From assembly GCF_044324785.1 (NCBI RefSeq), contig NZ_CP172127.1: a DNA stretch of 64,000 nucleotides, one strand, 5' to 3'. Position 1 is the stretch's first letter, and each line of letters starts with the position of its first letter. Shown here one piece after another: positions 55,774 through 64,000 of this stretch. The translations under genes were made by a program, and so were the position numbers. The DNA is from Escherichia coli. GTDB taxonomy: Bacteria; Pseudomonadota; Gammaproteobacteria; Enterobacterales; Enterobacteriaceae. The notes beneath the pieces were generated by a model. The model searched no databases. It had not been told where the DNA came from and saw nothing but the letters and a program-made list of their open reading frames with translations.

Positions 55774-58700
55774 TTAGAACGTTTTCTTGAAGTTCAGCAT
55801 CACGCCTTTATCGCTGATGCCGTCCTCTTTCCAGTGGTAAGCATCCAGATTCAGCGAACTTTCTTTGCTGCTGTACTTCACGCCGACACTTGCCAGGCTG
55901 TTGATGCCGCCGCCCTTCTGTCCGTCATCGACGTTAAAGTGCTGACTGCCTGCGCCTGCCAGGCTTGCCGTACGCTGGCTCTTCGCGTAGCTCAGGTTCG
56001 GCCCGCCTTCCAGCGTAGCGCTAGCGCTCCAGCCGTCTTTACCTGCATAGTCCAGTTTCAGCCCGACGATGCTGTCCACCGCCGTTTCGCTGCCACTGTT
56101 CATATTCAGGTTAAAGTCTCCGGCATTGCGCTCCTGATAGCCACCTTCCAGTGTGTGACGCAGTTTAACACCCGCATATGGCGTAACCTTCAGTCCTTCG
56201 CTCGGTTCGAAAGTCTTCGCCCCTTCGCTGCGGAACTCCAGGTACTGCTGCTTCACGTCGGTATCAGCCGTTTTGTTTGTGTTGCTAAATGCAATCGAAC
56301 GGCTGCTGTCAAGGTTGTGAACGTCATAACGCAATGCGTTATTCCAGTTCATGCCGTTGTCGAAGGACATCTGATGTTTCAGGCCAAAGAACTGGCTATA
56401 ACCGCCTGTAACGCCATTATCACCCGCTTTCTGCGCACCGTCGCCATCGAGGCGCGCGATACCGTACTCCAGACTCATCGTCTGGCTTTCGCTCAGGTCG
56501 ATGGTTTTACGCAGTGCCAGCATGTCGTACTCGGTATTGTTCCCCAGCTCCGCGCGCGGATCGCCTTTCGCCACCACGTTGAACGCCAGACCGTTACCCA
56601 CTTTCGGTGCGGCATCCGCCAGCATGCTAAAGCGGTTGCTGAGCACACGCGCTTCGCGGAATACCGTGGTCGCCTGGCTACCGCTGACCTGTTTCAGGGC
56701 ACTGTTCAGTTCGGCAGTCGTGCCGACGTTCAGGCTGGTATACAGCTCGTTGTTGGTGTAACCCGCATCCAGTGCTTTCGCGACGTCATTAACCGAAGCA
56801 TCGGTCGCCACATCGGTATAAGCGTTTTTGCTCATAGTGACGTCAACGTTGCCGCTGGCATCGGTACTGCCTTTAGCGTTCCAGACAACTGAAGAGGAAG
56901 TGATATTCTCCGCGCCGCTGATATTTTCACCTTTGAAAACATCATCAATCACCACGGTAGTATCAGCAGTTCCTGCACTAAAGCCAGTATTTACCTTGAC
57001 GTTGTCACTGATAACAAGGTTATTGGCTTTCAAGGTGCCGGAACTTCCGTCGCTATTAGTACCAATAGTGTAATTGGTAAGTTTTTGCTGACTTACAGCA
57101 TTGACTGGTGCCGCAGGAACATTACCTTGCCCAGGCGTCGCAGAAGCGACCGGTACGATTATATCCGCAGTTCCATCCTGACTGTTTCTCGTCCCTGTGG
57201 TATTTGGCGCATAAATCTCGCAACCAATATTACACAACAGGTTGATTATCCCATTATTCACAATCGCTTTAGTGGAACCACCAAACGCCCATGAATTATC
57301 TGCATAAACGTTAATGACACCGTCTTTAGTATTATTAATCGTTGTTGCAGAACCATTTCCTTTGATGCCAATCAGACCTTCACCGTTGCTTCCATCTGCT
57401 TTGCCCTGTTCAGTACCCACGTTAATTGTGCCGCTGTTCACTAACTGAACAGTATAGCTGGTGGTGCCTCCGCTAATAGCAACTGAACCATCACCCTGAA
57501 CATTAATTGTTCCGGCGTTAGCAAAATTATACCCGCGACCTAAATCAATCAGTGGAGCATCTGGATTGATACCATTAATTACACCGTTTTCTGTATTCCA
57601 AATCCATTTGCCGTTGCTGTTAGAGCCTGTGCTGGCAGTTTTAATCGCACTGTAACCGTTTGTAGCGATAATTTTGCCGCGGTTAACCTGTGAAAGAGAA
57701 TCACTGGTGCGTGTGATATTAACGATGGCATTTTCCCCTCCCGCAATAGCATTGCCGCTATTTGTAAGCGTTGAGCCGGCTTCATTATAAAGTACGAAAC
57801 TGCCGTTAATTAAGGCACTACCATCTGTGGCAGTTGTCATCTCCCCCGTATTTACAACGTTTTGTTTATAACTATCACCGCTAATTACACCGCTAAAGCT
57901 TCCCTCATTGAAGAAGGCAGACCCGCCTTTTAACATTAACAGTTCGGTTGTCATACTGCCCGAGGCGCGATTGTAAACACTGGCATTGGCAGTAAGCTTG
58001 TCGACATCCATGCTCCCGCTGTTTTCCAGCCCCTGGACAATATTCAAATCACCATTAACTGTCAGGCTGGCCTTATCCTCGTTATATAACCATAGATTGG
58101 CATCGACATCGCCGTTCAGTATTTCTGTACCATAATTAGCCAGCGGTTTAATGGTAACAAAGCCATCTCGGGTAACTGTTTTGGTAATGTTCTCTCCACT
58201 GGCACTCAATTCAGATAACAGTTCCAGATTCTCTGCAGGAGCACCATAATGAGAGTCGGCGCTATCAATTTCCGCTCCGTTGAGATTAATCTCACCATAG
58301 TTGAGGATAATGCCTGTACCATCATTATAAAACGCCTGGCCCGTATCAACATTAATATTGATTACACCAGTTTGGTCGTTTATTGCCGTAGCACCTTTAT
58401 ACACTGCCATCCCTACCAGCGTATTACTACCCAGGTTTGCATCGTAATCTGCATTTTTCTCGAGGTTAATGATTCCCTGGTTAATAACCATATTACTGTT
58501 ACCGTAGGCGGCCATACCGGCACCTGCGTTATATACAGTAATTACACCACCTTCCAGGTTGGTCGCAATAGCGTTGTTACGAGCGCCACCCCCGGTGTCT
58601 GTCCCGGTTGCCATACCAACGCCATAATCTTTTGCCGTTGCCCCCGGAAGATCGGTACGCAAACTGGTGGTGTCATTGTCATCAATCCATAACGTATCCA

Positions 58701-61700
58701 CCGTAATATTGCCTGCATTATCCGCCGTTGAGTTATCGATGGCTAACATGCCAATGCTACCGCGTCCATACATATCAATGACAGCACCTTCGGCATTGAG
58801 AACAGAGCCTTTATTATACGCCTCCATCCCCATCATGCTTGCTACGCTGTTATTAAACACGCGCTGATCCGTTGACCCCGTGAGTGCAGCCATATTAACA
58901 ACGCTATGTTGCTCCATTACTTTTGAGGTAATTACCCCTTTGTTTACTGCTCTGCCGCCGTTAGAGGTCAAGAAGGCCGTGTTATCTGGTTCCGGTGCTG
59001 GCGTATTAGTTGAGGCATAATCATACAGAGAAAGTGTGATATTCCCGTTATTGATACCTGTGGTATTTTCGCCAAAGATACCAGCAAAGCTGATATTCCA
59101 GATATCAACATTACCGTTATTTATAACCTCAGAGCTACTTTCTGCCTTTATAATCTGTGGTGTTTGTGCATAGTAATGATCATAATTTTCAATATCCCGC
59201 ATATTGAAAGTAGCTTCACTGCCAATCTCAATAGCTGCTTTATTTTTTAACTGGATAAGGCTTGCATATCCTAGTTGCAGATCACCACTGATCGTTGAGT
59301 CACCATTCAGATATATCTTCGATTCACCATCAATACCAATAAGTGGCGTATTACCGAAGAAAGTCCGTTTGTTAGCAATGGCTGAACCATCGGTCAGCGC
59401 ATTTATTTCACCAACAAATGCAATCCCGCCATTCAGATTGATGTTGTTACCATCACCGGAAACAATAAGACCAGAAATATTTTCCTGGCTACCGTCAAAA
59501 TTCGAGACATCACGTGTGGTAGTTTCACCATCCGCAACAAGCGTTAATTTACCATCCAGTGTCACATTGTTATTATGACCACTGACATTTACGCCCACGG
59601 AAGCGTCATAAAAATACTCTGCTGCATTGTCTGCGCTCTGATCTTTATCAACCAGAATATTACCAGTTATATCAATTGTATTGGCATCACCGGAGACGTT
59701 AATACCTGTAGCTTTCTGACCAACGACATTAAGATCCTGCATTGCCATTGTCAGGCTATTATTATCGCCAGTTAATGTCAGCCCTGTTGAAAAATCACCG
59801 ACCTGCATACTTCCCGCGAGGGAGATTTTCCCCTCGTCGCTGGTAATAGCAAATCCCGTCGCTGAATTGCTGACATCCACATCACCGGTATTGGCAAGTG
59901 TCGCGTTGTCGCCATTGATCAGTACACCGATCGAGTCTGCGTCCGTGACGGTCATATTGCCTTTGTTATCGACGGCGGCATTATCGCCAGAAATATCAAT
60001 GCCGTGACCGCCGCCGCTGACATCCAGATCGCCATCCTGGATAACTTTTCCGTTATTGCCGTTGATTTCCGTGCCGGTGGAGTCTTTACCGTCAACGGTG
60101 GTTTTGCCGCTGTTGTTCGCCGTGGCGTCGTCACCGTTAATCTGTGTACCGGTGCCGCCGTTGGTGATGGTGCTCTCGCCTTCGTTGTTAACAACCGCCT
60201 TGTCGCCGTCGATCTGAATACCGATGGACTCCGGATCGGTGACAGTCATGGTACCCTTGTTGTCCACCGTTGCGCTGTCACCGGTAATATCAATCCCGTG
60301 ACCGCCGCCGCTGACGTCCAGATCGCCGTCCTGGATAACTTTTCCGTTATTGCCGTTGATTTCCGTGCCGGTGGAATCTTTACCGTCAACGGTGGTTTTG
60401 CCGCTGTTGTTCGCCGTGGCGTCATCACCGTTAATCTGCGTACCGGTGCCGCCGTTGCTGATGGTGCTGTCGCCTTCGTTGTTAACAACCGCCTTGTCGC
60501 CGTCGATCTGAATACCGATGGACTCCGGATCGGTGACAGTCATGGTACCCTTGTTGTCCACCGTTGCGCTGTCACCGGTAATATCAATCCCGTGACCGCC
60601 GCCGCTGACGTCCAGATCGCCGTCCTGGATAACTTTTCCGTTATTGCCGTTGATTTCCGTGCCGGTGGAATCTTTACCGTCAACGGTGGTTTTGCCGCTG
60701 TTGTTCGCCGTGGCGTCATCACCGTTAATCTGCGTACCGGTGCCGCCGTTGCTGATGGTGCTGTCGCCTTCGTTGTTAACAACCGCCTTGTCGCCGTCGA
60801 TCTGAATACCGATGGACTCCGGATCGGTGACGGTCATGGAGCCCTTGTTATCCACCGTTGAACTGTCACCGGTGATATCAATGCCGTGACCGCCGCCGCT
60901 GACATCCAGATCACCGTCCTGGATAACTTTTCCGTTATTGCCGTTGATTTCCGTGCCGGTGGAATCCTTGCCGTCAACGGTGGTTTTGCCGCTGTTGTTC
61001 GCCGTGGCGTCATCACCGTTAATCTGCGTACCGGTGCCGCCATTGCTGATGGTGCTGTCGCCTTCGTTGTTAACAACAGCCTTGTCGCCGTCGATCTGAA
61101 TACCGATGGACTCCGGATCGGTGACGGTCATGGTGCCCTTGTTATCCACCGTTGAACTGTCACCGGTGATATCAATGCCGTGACCGCCGCCGCTGACATC
61201 CAGATCACCGTCCTGGATAACTTTTCCGTTATTGCCGTTGATTTCCGTGCCGGTGGAATCCTTGCCGTCAACGGTGGTTTTGCCGCTGTTGTTCGCCGTG
61301 GCGTCATCACCGTTAATCTGCGTACCGGTGCCGCCGTTGCTGATGGTGCTGTCGCCTTCGTTGTTAACAACCGCCTTGTCGCCGTCGATCTGAATACCGA
61401 TGGACTCCGGATCGGTGACAGTCATGGTACCCTTGTTGTCCACCGTTGCGCTGTCACCGGTAATATCAATCCCGTGACCGCCGCCGCTGACGTCCAGATC
61501 GCCGTCCTGGATAACTTTTCCGTTATTGCCGTTGATTTCCGTGCCGGTGGAATCTTTACCGTCAACGGTGGTTTTGCCGCTGTTGTTCGCCGTGGCGTCA
61601 TCACCGTTAATCTGCGTACCGGTGCCGCCGTTGCTGATGGTGCTGTCGCCTTCGTTGTTAACAACCGCCTTGTCGCCGTCGATCTGAATACCGATGGACT

Positions 61701-63459
61701 CCGGATCGGTGACGGTCATGGAGCCCTTGTTATCCACCGTTGAACTGTCACCGGTGATATCAATGCCGTGACCGCCGCCGCTGACATCCAGATCACCGTC
61801 CTGGATAACTTTTCCGTTATTGCCGTTGATTTCCGTGCCGGTGGAATCCTTGCCGTCAACGGTGGTTTTGCCGCTGTTGTTCGCCGTGGCGTCATCACCG
61901 TTAATCTGCGTACCGGTGCCGCCATTGCTGATGGTGCTGTCGCCTTCGTTGTTAACAACAGCCTTGTCGCCGTCGATCTGAATACCGATGGACTCCGGAT
62001 CGGTGACGGTCATGGTGCCCTTGTTATCCACCGTTGAACTGTCACCGGTGATATCAATGCCGTGACCGCCGCCGCTGACATCCAGATCACCGTCCTGGAT
62101 AACTTTTCCGTTATTGCCGTTGATTTCCGTGCCGGTGGAATCCTTGCCGTCAACGGTGGTTTTGCCGCTGTTGTTCGCCGTGGCGTCATCACCGTTAATC
62201 TGCGTACCGGTGCCGCCATTGCTGATGGTGCTGTCGCCTTCGTTATTGACAACCGCCTTGTCACCGTCAATCCGGATACCCATGGACTCCGGATCGGTGA
62301 CAGTCATCGTGCCCTTGTTATCCACCGTCGCACTGTCACCGGTGATATCAATCCCGTGACCGCCGCCGCTGACGTCCAGATCGCCGTCCTGGATAACTTT
62401 CCCGTTATTACCGTTGATTTCCGTGCCGGTGGAGTCTTTACCGTCAACGGTGGTTTTGCCGCTGTTGTTCGCCGTGGCGTCGTCACCGTTAATCTGCGTG
62501 CCGGTGCCGCCGTTGCTGATGGTGCTCTCGCCTTCGTTATTGACGATGGCCTTGTCACCGTCAATCCGGATACCCATGGACTCCGGATCGGTGACAGTCA
62601 TGGTGCCCTTGTTATCCACCGTCGCGCTGTCGCCGGTGATATCAATGCCGTGACCGCCGCCGCTGACGTCCAGATCGCCGTCCTGGATAACTTTCCCGTT
62701 ATTACCGTTGATTTCCGTGCCGGTGGAGTCTTTACCGTCAACGGTGGTTTTGCCATTGTTGTTTACTGTGGCATTATCACCCGTAATAACAAGCTCACCG
62801 TTGTGATTGTATTGCCACTTCGTTGCGCCATCTGCGCTCACCCCTTCAAGGGCAACAGTGTTATTTGCTTCATCAATCTGCCAAAGATTAATTGTTGCCT
62901 TACGACCACTGTTATCTTGCAGAGAAATAGTCCCGTCAGCATTCTCGGTATAAGTAAAAACTGAATCGCGAATAGTTAACGTTTTTTCTGTTTTATCGAG
63001 AATAACGTCATTATTAAACGAAATCGGTTTGGAAGGTGTAGGGGTATCATCCGGATCGTCCGGTATTATCTCATCTCCGCCTGGAGTTGGAGGCACTGGA
63101 GTATCGTCTGAATCATCATCGGGTGGTGTCGGCGGTACAGGGGCATTGTTGCGATGATGATGATTACCATCGTCGTTTAGTTCGACGACCGCCAGCGCGG
63201 TGATTAATGCAAAGGCACCAGAGGCAACCCACGGCATAAGGTTTTGCTGTACTTGTGGAGAACATTCGGGAGGTATTTGCTTTAACGCTTCCGGAGTCAG
63301 CATGTCAGGGTCTGCCGGACAAGTCACATTGGTATTTTTCTTTTCGCCTGTGGCCGTTTCTGTCTCTGTAATATCAGCCGCCCACCCCTGACCACTCAGA
63401 GCTAATGCAATACAGGCTGATAATAGGGTTTTCCTTTGCATAATAAATCCTTCTGACAA
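55774..63459 (-). CDS. ydbA: Giant autotransporter adhesin-like protein YdbA, uninterrupted
   Basis: 2561-codon ORF. Signal peptide (MQRKTLLSACIALALSGQGWA; the start may be the internal ATG at 63441), Pro/Asp-rich linker, repetitive passenger domain, and a C-terminal beta-barrel region ending in F. Confidence 0.9.
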   Translation of the reverse strand: MSEGFIMQRKTLLSACIALALSGQGWAADITETETATGEKKNTNVTCPADPDMLTPEALKQIPPECSPQVQQNLMPWVASGAFALITALAVVELNDDGNHHHRNNAPVPPTPPDDDSDDTPVPPTPGGDEIIPDDPDDTPTPSKPISFNNDVILDKTEKTLTIRDSVFTYTENADGTISLQDNSGRKATINLWQIDEANNTVALEGVSADGATKWQYNHNGELVITGDNATVNNNGKTTVDGKDSTGTEINGNNGKVIQDGDLDVSGGGHGIDITGDSATVDNKGTMTVTDPESMGIRIDGDKAIVNNEGESTISNGGTGTQINGDDATANNSGKTTVDGKDSTGTEINGNNGKVIQDGDLDVSGGGHGIDITGDSATVDNKGTMTVTDPESMGIRIDGDKAVVNNEGDSTISNGGTGTQINGDDATANNSGKTTVDGKDSTGTEINGNNGKVIQDGDLDVSGGGHGIDITGDSSTVDNKGTMTVTDPESIGIQIDGDKAVVNNEGDSTISNGGTGTQINGDDATANNSGKTTVDGKDSTGTEINGNNGKVIQDGDLDVSGGGHGIDITGDSSTVDNKGSMTVTDPESIGIQIDGDKAVVNNEGDSTISNGGTGTQINGDDATANNSGKTTVDGKDSTGTEINGNNGKVIQDGDLDVSGGGHGIDITGDSATVDNKGTMTVTDPESIGIQIDGDKAVVNNEGDSTISNGGTGTQINGDDATANNSGKTTVDGKDSTGTEINGNNGKVIQDGDLDVSGGGHGIDITGDSSTVDNKGTMTVTDPESIGIQIDGDKAVVNNEGDSTISNGGTGTQINGDDATANNSGKTTVDGKDSTGTEINGNNGKVIQDGDLDVSGGGHGIDITGDSSTVDNKGSMTVTDPESIGIQIDGDKAVVNNEGDSTISNGGTGTQINGDDATANNSGKTTVDGKDSTGTEINGNNGKVIQDGDLDVSGGGHGIDITGDSATVDNKGTMTVTDPESIGIQIDGDKAVVNNEGDSTISNGGTGTQINGDDATANNSGKTTVDGKDSTGTEINGNNGKVIQDGDLDVSGGGHGIDITGDSATVDNKGTMTVTDPESIGIQIDGDKAVVNNEGESTITNGGTGTQINGDDATANNSGKTTVDGKDSTGTEINGNNGKVIQDGDLDVSGGGHGIDISGDNAAVDNKGNMTVTDADSIGVLINGDNATLANTGDVDVSNSATGFAITSDEGKISLAGSMQVGDFSTGLTLTGDNNSLTMAMQDLNVVGQKATGINVSGDANTIDITGNILVDKDQSADNAAEYFYDASVGVNVSGHNNNVTLDGKLTLVADGETTTRDVSNFDGSQENISGLIVSGDGNNINLNGGIAFVGEINALTDGSAIANKRTFFGNTPLIGIDGESKIYLNGDSTISGDLQLGYASLIQLKNKAAIEIGSEATFNMRDIENYDHYYAQTPQIIKAESSSEVINNGNVDIWNISFAGIFGENTTGINNGNITLSLYDYASTNTPAPEPDNTAFLTSNGGRAVNKGVITSKVMEQHSVVNMAALTGSTDQRVFNNSVASMMGMEAYNKGSVLNAEGAVIDMYGRGSIGMLAIDNSTADNAGNITVDTLWIDDNDTTSLRTDLPGATAKDYGVGMATGTDTGGGARNNAIATNLEGGVITVYNAGAGMAAYGNSNMVINQGIINLEKNADYDANLGSNTLVGMAVYKGATAINDQTGVININVDTGQAFYNDGTGIILNYGEINLNGAEIDSADSHYGAPAENLELLSELSASGENITKTVTRDGFVTIKPLANYGTEILNGDVDANLWLYNEDKASLTVNGDLNIVQGLENSGSMDVDKLTANASVYNRASGSMTTELLMLKGGSAFFNEGSFSGVISGDSYKQNVVNTGEMTTATDGSALINGSFVLYNEAGSTLTNSGNAIAGGENAIVNITRTSDSLSQVNRGKIIATNGYSAIKTASTGSNSNGKWIWNTENGVINGINPDAPLIDLGRGYNFANAGTINVQGDGSVAISGGTTSYTVQLVNSGTINVGTEQGKADGSNGEGLIGIKGNGSATTINNTKDGVINVYADNSWAFGGSTKAIVNNGIINLLCNIGCEIYAPNTTGTRNSQDGTADIIVPVASATPGQGNVPAAPVNAVSQQKLTNYTIGTNSDGSSGTLKANNLVISDNVKVNTGFSAGTADTTVVIDDVFKGENISGAENITSSSVVWNAKGSTDASGNVDVTMSKNAYTDVATDASVNDVAKALDAGYTNNELYTSLNVGTTAELNSALKQVSGSQATTVFREARVLSNRFSMLADAAPKVGNGLAFNVVAKGDPRAELGNNTEYDMLALRKTIDLSESQTMSLEYGIARLDGDGAQKAGDNGVTGGYSQFFGLKHQMSFDNGMNWNNALRYDVHNLDSSRSIAFSNTNKTADTDVKQQYLEFRSEGAKTFEPSEGLKVTPYAGVKLRHTLEGGYQERNAGDFNLNMNSGSETAVDSIVGLKLDYAGKDGWSASATLEGGPNLSYAKSQRTASLAGAGSQHFNVDDGQKGGGINSLASVGVKYSSKESSLNLDAYHWKEDGISDKGVMLNFKKTF
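59900..62760. repeat. Tandem in-frame repeats inside ydbA: about 10 copies of a 294-bp (98-codon) unit
   Basis: Protein unit GKTTVDGKDSTGTEINGNNGKVIQDGDLDVSGGGHGIDITGD…NGGTGTQINGDDATANNS recurs about ten times. Alternate-frame shadow ORFs recur at exactly 294-bp spacing (60246, 60540, 60834, 61128, 61422, 61716, 62010, 62304), several with identical translations. Confidence 0.9.
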
Positions 63460-63924
63460 ATATAAAGAACGCCAGAATTCATAAAGATCATTGAAATCAA
63501 CAACCCTTACAAATATCTGACTGTAAAATATTCAAAAAATATATGATAAGCATTCTATATTGTCAGCAGTACATTATTCAACCTATTTTGTTGATGTTTC
63601 CTAAATATAGATGCGGTGAATGTATAACAACATAAAAACAATATTTATATATGATTAAAAATCTTCTCAAGACAATAATAATTTCGATGTTAAATTCGCA
63701 CAGAGAATATTATTAATGTTGATTATTTGTTGGGGTTATTTATTTGATGAGCAGCAATTCACTAGAGTTGCAAACGCCTCTCTTGTAAGACATTCATCTT
63801 TTCTCAGGAATGCCGATGTAATCGGTGTGCTCCTTTGCAGCAACACGCTGCTCTATGATCTTGTTAACTAATACCCTATTTTTCACCGACTACTACCAAA
63901 TGGTGTTTGAACTACCGTTGCATG

Positions 63925-64000
63925 TTATTTCCGTATCCACATACCATTTATGCCCTGCACGTATTCACCGGGTTTTGCCTTTTCCAACAGCTTCGTCCCT
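63925..64000 (-). CDS. Possible 3' end of a minus-strand CDS running off the right edge; identity unknown
   Basis: Open minus-strand frame over 24 codons (…KLLEKAKPGEYVQGINGMWIRK*) ending at TAA 63925..63927, in sequence with coding-like GC content. Too short to identify. Confidence 0.3.
   Translation of the reverse strand, partial: GTKLLEKAKPGEYVQGINGMWIRK

Follow-up and report, generated by a model that had tools for sequence, protein, structure and literature searches.

Near-identical in-frame repeats in the passenger of the Escherichia coli autotransporter YdbA: a probable source of variation in stalk length

Introduction

The ydbA gene of Escherichia coli raises the question of what, if anything, is varied when the gene for a putative surface protein carries some ten nearly identical copies of a 294-bp segment in tandem. 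The case arose in a stretch of 64,000 nucleotides (nt) from an E. coli genome (NCBI RefSeq assembly GCF_044324785.1, contig NZ_CP172127.1), called the window in what follows. There, ydbA occupies 55774..63441 on the minus strand and, as judged from its open reading frame (ORF), Pfam and NCBIfam matches and synteny, encodes an intact classical (type Va) autotransporter of 2555 amino acids (aa), of the BigA/YdbA family. An earlier inspection without database searches, the sequence-only reading, had described about ten near-identical repeats within ydbA, attributed them to recent expansion or gene conversion, predicted variation in copy number between strains with a potential for phase or antigenic variation, and warned that such a region is liable to assembly collapse. 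The array, its recent growth, recombination among its units and its variability between strains are all borne out here, whereas neither phase nor antigenic variation is. The array is probably an in-frame coding minisatellite in the YdbA passenger, at which unequal recombination lengthens or shortens a surface stalk; what varies is the length of part of the beta-helical passenger, not an on/off state.

Anatomy of the repeat array

Tandem Repeats Finder (TRF) reported one array at 59902..62781, with a period of 294, 9.8 copies, 95% matches, 0% indels and a score of 4934, and a repeat finder placed 10 copies in register, at a spacing of exactly 294 bp, over 59902..62848. Together with a mismatch matrix and the units recognized in the protein, these define an array of ten 294-bp (98-codon) units at 59902..62841 on the minus strand, with unit starts, given on the plus strand, at 59902, 60196, 60490, 60784, 61078, 61372, 61666, 61960, 62254 and 62548. 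Eight near-identical interior units are bordered by a diverged edge unit (59902) and a degenerate one (62548). The whole array lies inside the single ydbA frame, which opens with an ATG at 63441 and closes with a stop at 55774-55776, minus strand. The gene stands next to pdxI, at the locus of ydbA in K-12, so the original placement of the repeats within ydbA was correct.

Units 60196, 60490 and 61372 are identical over 294 nt, as are 60784 and 61666, and units 61078 and 61960 lie 3-4 nt from the 60784/61666 type. The two types, represented by 60196 and 60784, are 12-15 nt apart per 294, and unit 62254 is 21-26 nt away from the other units. Overall, the interior units are 91-100% identical as DNA. 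Mismatches rise to 36-41 per 294 nt between edge unit 59902 and the other units, and to 56-85 for edge unit 62548. The array signal is nevertheless far above chance, since adjoining non-array sequence compared with itself at lag 294 gives 192-228 mismatches per 294 positions. A half-period of 147 bp inside the unit is weak (about 58-60% identity).

In the protein, nine full 98-aa units (aa 232-1113) are accompanied by a partial tenth, and repetition as a whole covers roughly aa 214-1178. Against a reference unit, each of the nine has 0-4 differences in 98 residues, an identity of 96-100%. The repetition also generates nine minus-strand alternate-frame ORFs of 80-86 aa, spaced at 294 bp and lying one base off the ydbA frame; three share one identical translation and two share another. 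The earlier observation of shadow ORFs with identical translations therefore holds. These ORFs are by-products of the repeat, not genes.

Recent duplications

An exact-run scan at lags of 294-1470 found an exact 953-bp repeat at lag 882, that is, three units (60383-61335 = 61265-62217). The result is 1835 bp of exact period-882 sequence (60383..62217, minus strand), the product of a three-unit block duplication, so that protein-register units 3-4-5 equal units 6-7-8 at the DNA level. A further exact repeat, of 362 bp at lag 294 (60176-60537 = 60470-60831), corresponds to a single-unit duplication at 60176..60831, minus strand. The number of substitutions since either duplication is zero, which marks the three-unit block duplication as very recent. 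The two interleaved sub-types of unit that had been noticed at the outset are real, and they interleave because of the block and single-unit duplications.

If both duplications are removed, six units remain, the count found in related ST2747-type alleles. We infer from this a step in which the array would have grown from about six units to ten through one single-unit and one three-unit duplication. Because no other sampled array is as homogeneous as that of the window (mean interior mismatch 12.1 per 294 nt; longest exact repeat 953 bp), it should rank among the least stable.

Copy number across E. coli

The locus was taken from 20 complete-genome records, the survey being within E. coli. XL1-Blue (NZ_CP081007.1) was dropped, its nominally complete assembly appearing scrambled at ydbA: at 5610-7019 of the extracted locus (L007), a ydbA fragment lies among insertion sequence (IS) elements, a 16S rRNA gene and truncated unrelated genes. 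In the 19 usable loci, counted in the register of the window unit, the number of units ranges from 1 to 12. RIVM_C037884 has one; EC21Z-144, MC1061 and a J53 derivative have three; MG1655 and the J53 reference (L020) have four; OW1E2, ST2747, Ecol_545 and MLI108K3 have six; Res13-Lact-EB12-05 has seven; OkiPb01676 and 19KM1831 have eight; 2021CK-01361 has nine; STEC388, like the window, has ten; N3 has 11; and 30224_1#291 and AR_0058 have 12. Strain 83972, which we take to belong to phylogroup B2, also scores ten in the window register, though its array is 441-bp-periodic. Length differences between annotated ydbA coding sequences (CDS) come in multiples of 294 bp, and E. coli YdbA homologues in a large protein collection range over 1844-2700 aa and form series with steps of 98 or 49 aa.

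Variation in count extends to genomes that are otherwise scarcely distinguishable at this locus. Over 3.2 kb of flanking sequence, made up of 2500 bp and 700 bp from the two sides, MLI108K3 with six units and RIVM_C037884 with one show 0 mismatches, as does MG1655 with four against both MC1061 and the J53 derivative with three each; STEC388 (ten) and OkiPb01676 (eight) show 2. Since genomes with identical flanks differ in count, unit count changes faster than the flanks gain point substitutions. The predicted variation in copy number between strains is thus observed, and on a short scale of divergence.

A different account of these numbers is that the array, or its count of ten, comes from assembly, through over-expansion or collapse of a repeat of some other length. 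The 1835 bp of exact period 882 are beyond short-read resolution, the J53-derived assembly is one unit short of the J53 reference, and XL1-Blue shows an assembly going astray at this very gene. However, independent complete genomes hold 8-12 units in the same register and with the same edge units, and N3, the closest relative, has 11. Moreover, each edge unit resembles the unit at the corresponding place in other strains (9-13 and 2-10 mismatches), and the window ORF is intact and in frame. An artefactual array is therefore very improbable; the more general warning, that the region is prone to mis-assembly, is plausible in view of the three and four units of the J53 pair.

Recombination among units

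Comparison with N3 illustrates how the arrays turn over. Its N-terminal flank is 100% and its C-terminal flank 99.3% identical to that of the window, and its 11 units include an exact 883-bp repeat of its own at lag 882. Between the two arrays, interior units are 11-21 nt apart whereas the edge units are only 9 and 2 nt apart. This contrast is the classic pattern of unequal exchange, with fast interior turnover and conserved edges.

The same conclusion emerges from 63 interior units from 11 genomes, which comprise 46 distinct sequences with 82 segregating sites, 60 of them (73%) at third codon positions. Because all four allele combinations (the four gametes) occur at 44% of informative site pairs, variants are shuffled among units by recombination, and the units are mosaics of mostly synonymous variants. 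The suggestion of gene conversion or recombination among units is in this way upheld. Unequal homologous recombination, or replication slippage, between long identical tracts would add and remove units and multi-unit blocks.

Laboratory strains of K-12 offer a possible snapshot of such a loss. MC1061 and the J53 derivative each have a sole interior unit that is a chimera of the two MG1655 interior units, and the intervals within which the switch occurred differ (positions 18-140 and 163-233), the two being among the longest tracts identical between the MG1655 units. These chimeric units are suggestive, as the product expected from unequal homologous exchange or slippage; a collapse by the assembler would look alike. 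The chimeras are at 6654-6947 of L005 (MC1061) and 6660-6953 of L006 (J53 derivative), and the MG1655 units at 6654-7241 of L004. The J53 reference assembly keeps four units, and so does DH10B, which has a four-unit span and presumably derives from MC1061. Proof of change on a laboratory time scale was consequently not claimed; the differences are suggestive only, either of real deletion within a pseudogene on that time scale or of assembly collapse. The MC1061-type three-unit allele is also present, 100% identical, in seven natural isolates, where recurrence and shared descent look the same because any crossover within one 123-bp identical tract gives one product.

The window allele is itself a mosaic on a larger scale. 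The 4.1 kb C-terminal to the array (55774-59900) are 98.6-98.7% identical to ST2747-type alleles, whereas the 590 bp N-terminal to it (62850-63441) are 87% identical to those alleles and 100% identical to N3. A switch from one allele class to another, made by recombination, therefore lies within the array or at its border.

Selection on the units and the question of switching

Among the window units, synonymous differences are common (pS 0.19) and the ratio of nonsynonymous to synonymous differences (pN/pS) is 0.066. The variants are old at silent sites, while the protein sequence has been held constant by purifying selection. This ratio and the 73% of segregating sites at third positions indicate that the repeats have been translated and selected.

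These figures also bear on the idea that repeat number switches YdbA on and off, or alters its epitopes for immune escape. Copy number does change quickly, and in some repeat-bearing surface proteins the loss of repeats lowers antibody recognition (PMC9704523). Yet the unit lies inside the coding region and, at 294 = 3 x 98, never shifts the frame, and the intact alleles examined, with 1 to 12 units, all remain open, including ones that differ by 1-9 units. Unit length thus rules out on/off phase variation via the array; the promoter and 5' end were not searched for short repeat tracts. Antigenic variation at the level of sequence is likewise rejected, as units that are 96-100% identical in protein, differ at 0-4 of 98 residues and evolve under purifying selection provide no new epitopes. 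Taken as a whole, we give phase or antigenic variation next to no credence.

Fold of the repeat unit

A model of aa 140-530, comprising the N-terminal domain BigA_N and three units, was obtained with AlphaFold from a small alignment of E. coli homologues. The mean predicted local distance difference test (pLDDT) score was 90.9, with 95-98 across the repeats. Strands follow a 6-4-4 pattern with start-to-start spacings of 24, 25, 24 and 25 residues, and the 98-aa unit is modelled as four three-stranded rungs of one continuous parallel beta-helix. In a Foldseek comparison with the PDB, the hits listed are all right-handed parallel beta-helix proteins except SufBCD, a left-handed beta-helix; they include Ag43, TibA, AlgG, phage tailspikes and Fap2, with Ag43 and TibA near the top.

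A beta-helix rises by about 0.48 nm per rung. Each four-rung unit would thus lengthen the stalk by about 2 nm, and ten units by about 19 nm. Strains would then project the N-terminal end of the protein to different distances from the outer membrane, as has been proposed for the "Periscope Proteins".

Units of other sizes occur in many E. coli alleles. Other E. coli lineages carry 147-aa units, or mixed 98- and 147-aa units (441-bp or 735-bp periods), the 147-aa units arising by insertion of an extra 49-aa two-rung module; examples are the 83972 locus (L016, 3108-6754) and proteins P0005-P0120. Because other lineages insert this extra module, the basic building block is the 49-aa half-unit.

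Organization of the protein

The array occupies the distal part of the passenger. A putative Sec-type signal peptide is assigned to aa 1-21 (MQRKTLLSACIALALSGQGWA; 63379..63441, minus strand) from the n/h/c layout typical of such peptides, judged by eye in the translation. BigA_N (PF25784, i-Evalue 3.9e-32) spans aa 140-220 (62782..63024, minus strand), directly N-terminal to the repeats, and is the membrane-distal end of the passenger. On the other side of the array lies a passenger segment (57076..59901, minus strand) in which neither TRF nor the search for protein units found periodicity. It leads to the BigA_beta sandwich domain (PF25783, aa 2123-2207, 56821..57075, minus strand, i-Evalue 3.2e-27) and then to the autotransporter beta-barrel translocator (PF03797, aa 2329-2526, 55864..56457, minus strand, i-Evalue 2.6e-18).

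The NCBIfam profile auto_BigA (NF033178) aligns to aa 1010-2555 with 2081 bits. This is under its cut-off of 3400 bits, and the protein is for that reason a relative of Salmonella BigA and not BigA itself. The domain set is common to both: BigA_N, a beta-helical passenger, the BigA_beta sandwich and the autotransporter barrel. The BigA profile, of 1875 positions, holds about one unit (positions 382-484) where YdbA in the window has ten.

The segment between the signal peptide and BigA_N has features of its own. A hydrophobic stretch of about 19 residues, MPWVASGAFALITALAVVEL (aa 68-86; 63184-63240, minus strand), has a Kyte-Doolittle mean of about 2.0 and is kept in other E. coli alleles; such a transmembrane-like segment is odd at the distal end of a secreted passenger. 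It is succeeded, at aa 87-139 (63025-63183, minus strand), by a His-rich patch and then an acidic, proline-rich linker ahead of BigA_N.

Stalk length or neutral length change

That the array is an in-frame minisatellite by which recombination alters the length of a surface stalk is, as stated, the probable reading, in which YdbA expression, surface display and function are putative and deduced from the gene. A number of findings weigh against it. A literature search on ydbA found almost nothing about YdbA and no documented function; no study of ydbA repeats was among the matches, which deal with IS-mediated deletions or list mutations. The gene is frequently disrupted, by IS2 and IS30 in K-12, by IS1 in EC21Z-144 and, as annotated, by a frameshift in N3, and is a recurrent target of inactivation. 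Among phylogroup A strains, full-length ydbA is reported for no more than about 42% (PMC4951805). Structurally, the repeats as modelled would be rungs of one solenoid and not the independently folding domains of the strict Periscope definition, and the array is only part of the stalk, with some 1000 (about 950) non-repetitive residues between it and the barrel. None of the Foldseek matches reaches significance (best E = 3e-3; template modelling (TM) scores 0.1-0.36) and a sequence search of the PDB found no solved relative, so that the fold assignment rests on the AlphaFold model. Finally, the exact count of ten units in the window is unverifiable without reads, and the differences among K-12 laboratory strains could be assembly collapses, given the four units of the J53 reference.

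In view of the frequent loss of ydbA, length variation may be a neutral by-product: long identical repeats recombine, and the length of the protein changes without adaptive role in a gene that is decaying in many lineages. The pseudogenes of K-12, EC21Z-144 and possibly N3 fit this account, as do the low frequency of full-length genes in phylogroup A and the lack of a reported function in the literature searched, and the 294-bp unit would keep the frame automatically. It sits less well with the protein sequence of the units, which is conserved while silent sites have diverged, with the excess of third-position sites, and with the window gene, which is intact from signal peptide to barrel. Neutral length change thus appears unlikely as the whole explanation, though it deserves to be kept in view: conservation of the units and an intact gene do not demonstrate that length itself is selected.

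A stronger form of the stalk-length reading would make YdbA a beta-solenoid periscope, in which recombining four-rung units give length heterogeneity within a population and match reach to the thickness of O antigen or capsule. This we put forward tentatively, as a doubtful extension. If it were true, ydbA would be a contingency locus that tunes length, something not yet demonstrated for a classical autotransporter.

The IS1 element that inactivates ydbA in EC21Z-144 (L003, 3090-3787) is independent of the IS2 and IS30 insertions of K-12. In N3 (L018, 1555-9515), the annotation splits ydbA into a barrel fragment with a frameshift and an N-terminal CDS of 5898 bp; the gene is either a genuine pseudogene or the victim of sequencing errors in the assembly.

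Relation to known repeat-bearing surface proteins

Periscope Proteins are monomeric surface proteins in which highly identical tandem repeats form a stalk and repeat number varies between strains; in surface stalk proteins such variation rises with the identity of the repeat DNA, and the detection criteria are repeats of more than 50 aa with at least 80% identity (Whelan et al. 2021, PMC8201768; review, PMC9704523). The 98-aa units of YdbA, at 96-100% identity, fall well within those limits, and repeat number varies between close strains with identical flanks (six against one, four against three). The fold is where YdbA departs from the type, since Periscope repeats are individually folding domains whereas those of YdbA would be rungs of a continuous beta-helix, from which a rod is expected and not a chain of independent domains. 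As to anchoring and a distal domain, the anchor of YdbA is inferred from PF03797, and BigA_N sits N-terminal to the stalk repeats. Unlike the Periscope type, the YdbA array forms the distal part of the passenger only.

The 84 variable clusters in Dataset S1 of PMC8201768 include ShdA, a beta-helical autotransporter of Salmonella. With its 4-6 beta-helical PATR repeats, ShdA is the closest known system, and it is listed as a Periscope protein despite its beta-helix. A monomeric, surface-anchored form, repeats of high identity and an elongated stalk behind an N-terminal domain are common to YdbA and to Periscope proteins and ShdA. YdbA itself is not among the 84 clusters. An E. coli entry, cluster 47, with a 99-aa repeat, was rejected as a match to YdbA, as it has 19-43 copies against the 1-12 of YdbA.

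The E. coli proteins AIDA-I, Ag43 and TibA are, like YdbA, type Va autotransporters with repetitive beta-helical passengers. Their repeat, however, is one degenerate 19-residue rung and they lack amplified identical units, whereas the YdbA rung has 24-25 residues and amplification has acted on blocks of four rungs encoded by nearly identical DNA. No AIDA-type Pfam match was found in the parts of YdbA searched (aa 1-1200 and aa 1356-2555). The Alpha C and Rib proteins of group B streptococci and SasG/Aap of staphylococci resemble YdbA in carrying identical in-frame DNA repeats in a surface protein, and in all of them recombination shifts copy number, changing size without an on/off switch. They differ in being Gram-positive and sortase-anchored, with Ig-like or G5-E domain repeats, and in having a function and an immune selection that experiments have established, in contrast to YdbA.

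A classical autotransporter with a similar organization is rOmpA (Sca0) of Rickettsia, whose passenger bears roughly twelve tandem repeats, near-identical and each of 72-75 aa. Two kinds of repeat are interspersed there, and strains differ in how many they have and in what order. The organism is unrelated, as are the sequence and the length of the repeats. YdbA is, in sum, a previously undescribed member of a well-known class, and its array would not surprise a specialist.

Implications

With YdbA, a widespread E. coli autotransporter joins the surface proteins in which recombination between near-identical repeats sets the length, and here the repeat is a block of solenoid rungs and not a folded domain. 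There are practical consequences as well. The length of ydbA is likely to come out wrong in short-read assemblies, and spurious ydbA alleles will turn up in gene-by-gene typing. The flank-to-flank size could act as a fast-evolving marker within clones. If length is functional, the alleles of 1-12 units form a natural series on how far a beta-helical adhesin reaches past the lipopolysaccharide layer. The locus is also a sensible model system for the tuning of length in solenoid adhesins.

Neighbouring genes and annotation

The gene pdxI is immediately downstream of ydbA in the window, an arrangement common to 17 further E. coli loci, among them that of the K-12 ydbA pseudogene. The genes flanking ydbA in the window show up to 98.6% identity to complete E. 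coli genomes. On the upstream side (63442-64000), ydbL stands in place of paaY, and the phenylacetate (paa) operon, the neighbour of ydbA in K-12 and in many other strains, is missing next to the window gene. The operon is also absent in N3, 19KM1831, 83972, 30224_1#291 and AR_0058, the last two retaining a paaY remnant only.

In NCBI records, the name "EntS/YbdA MFS transporter" is attached to many E. coli YdbA autotransporters with lengths of about 2300-2700 aa; it is seen for protein hits P0008-P0105, in L014 (1-8531) and in rows H80-H105. These labels look like a mix-up of the names ydbA and ybdA that has been spread by annotation.

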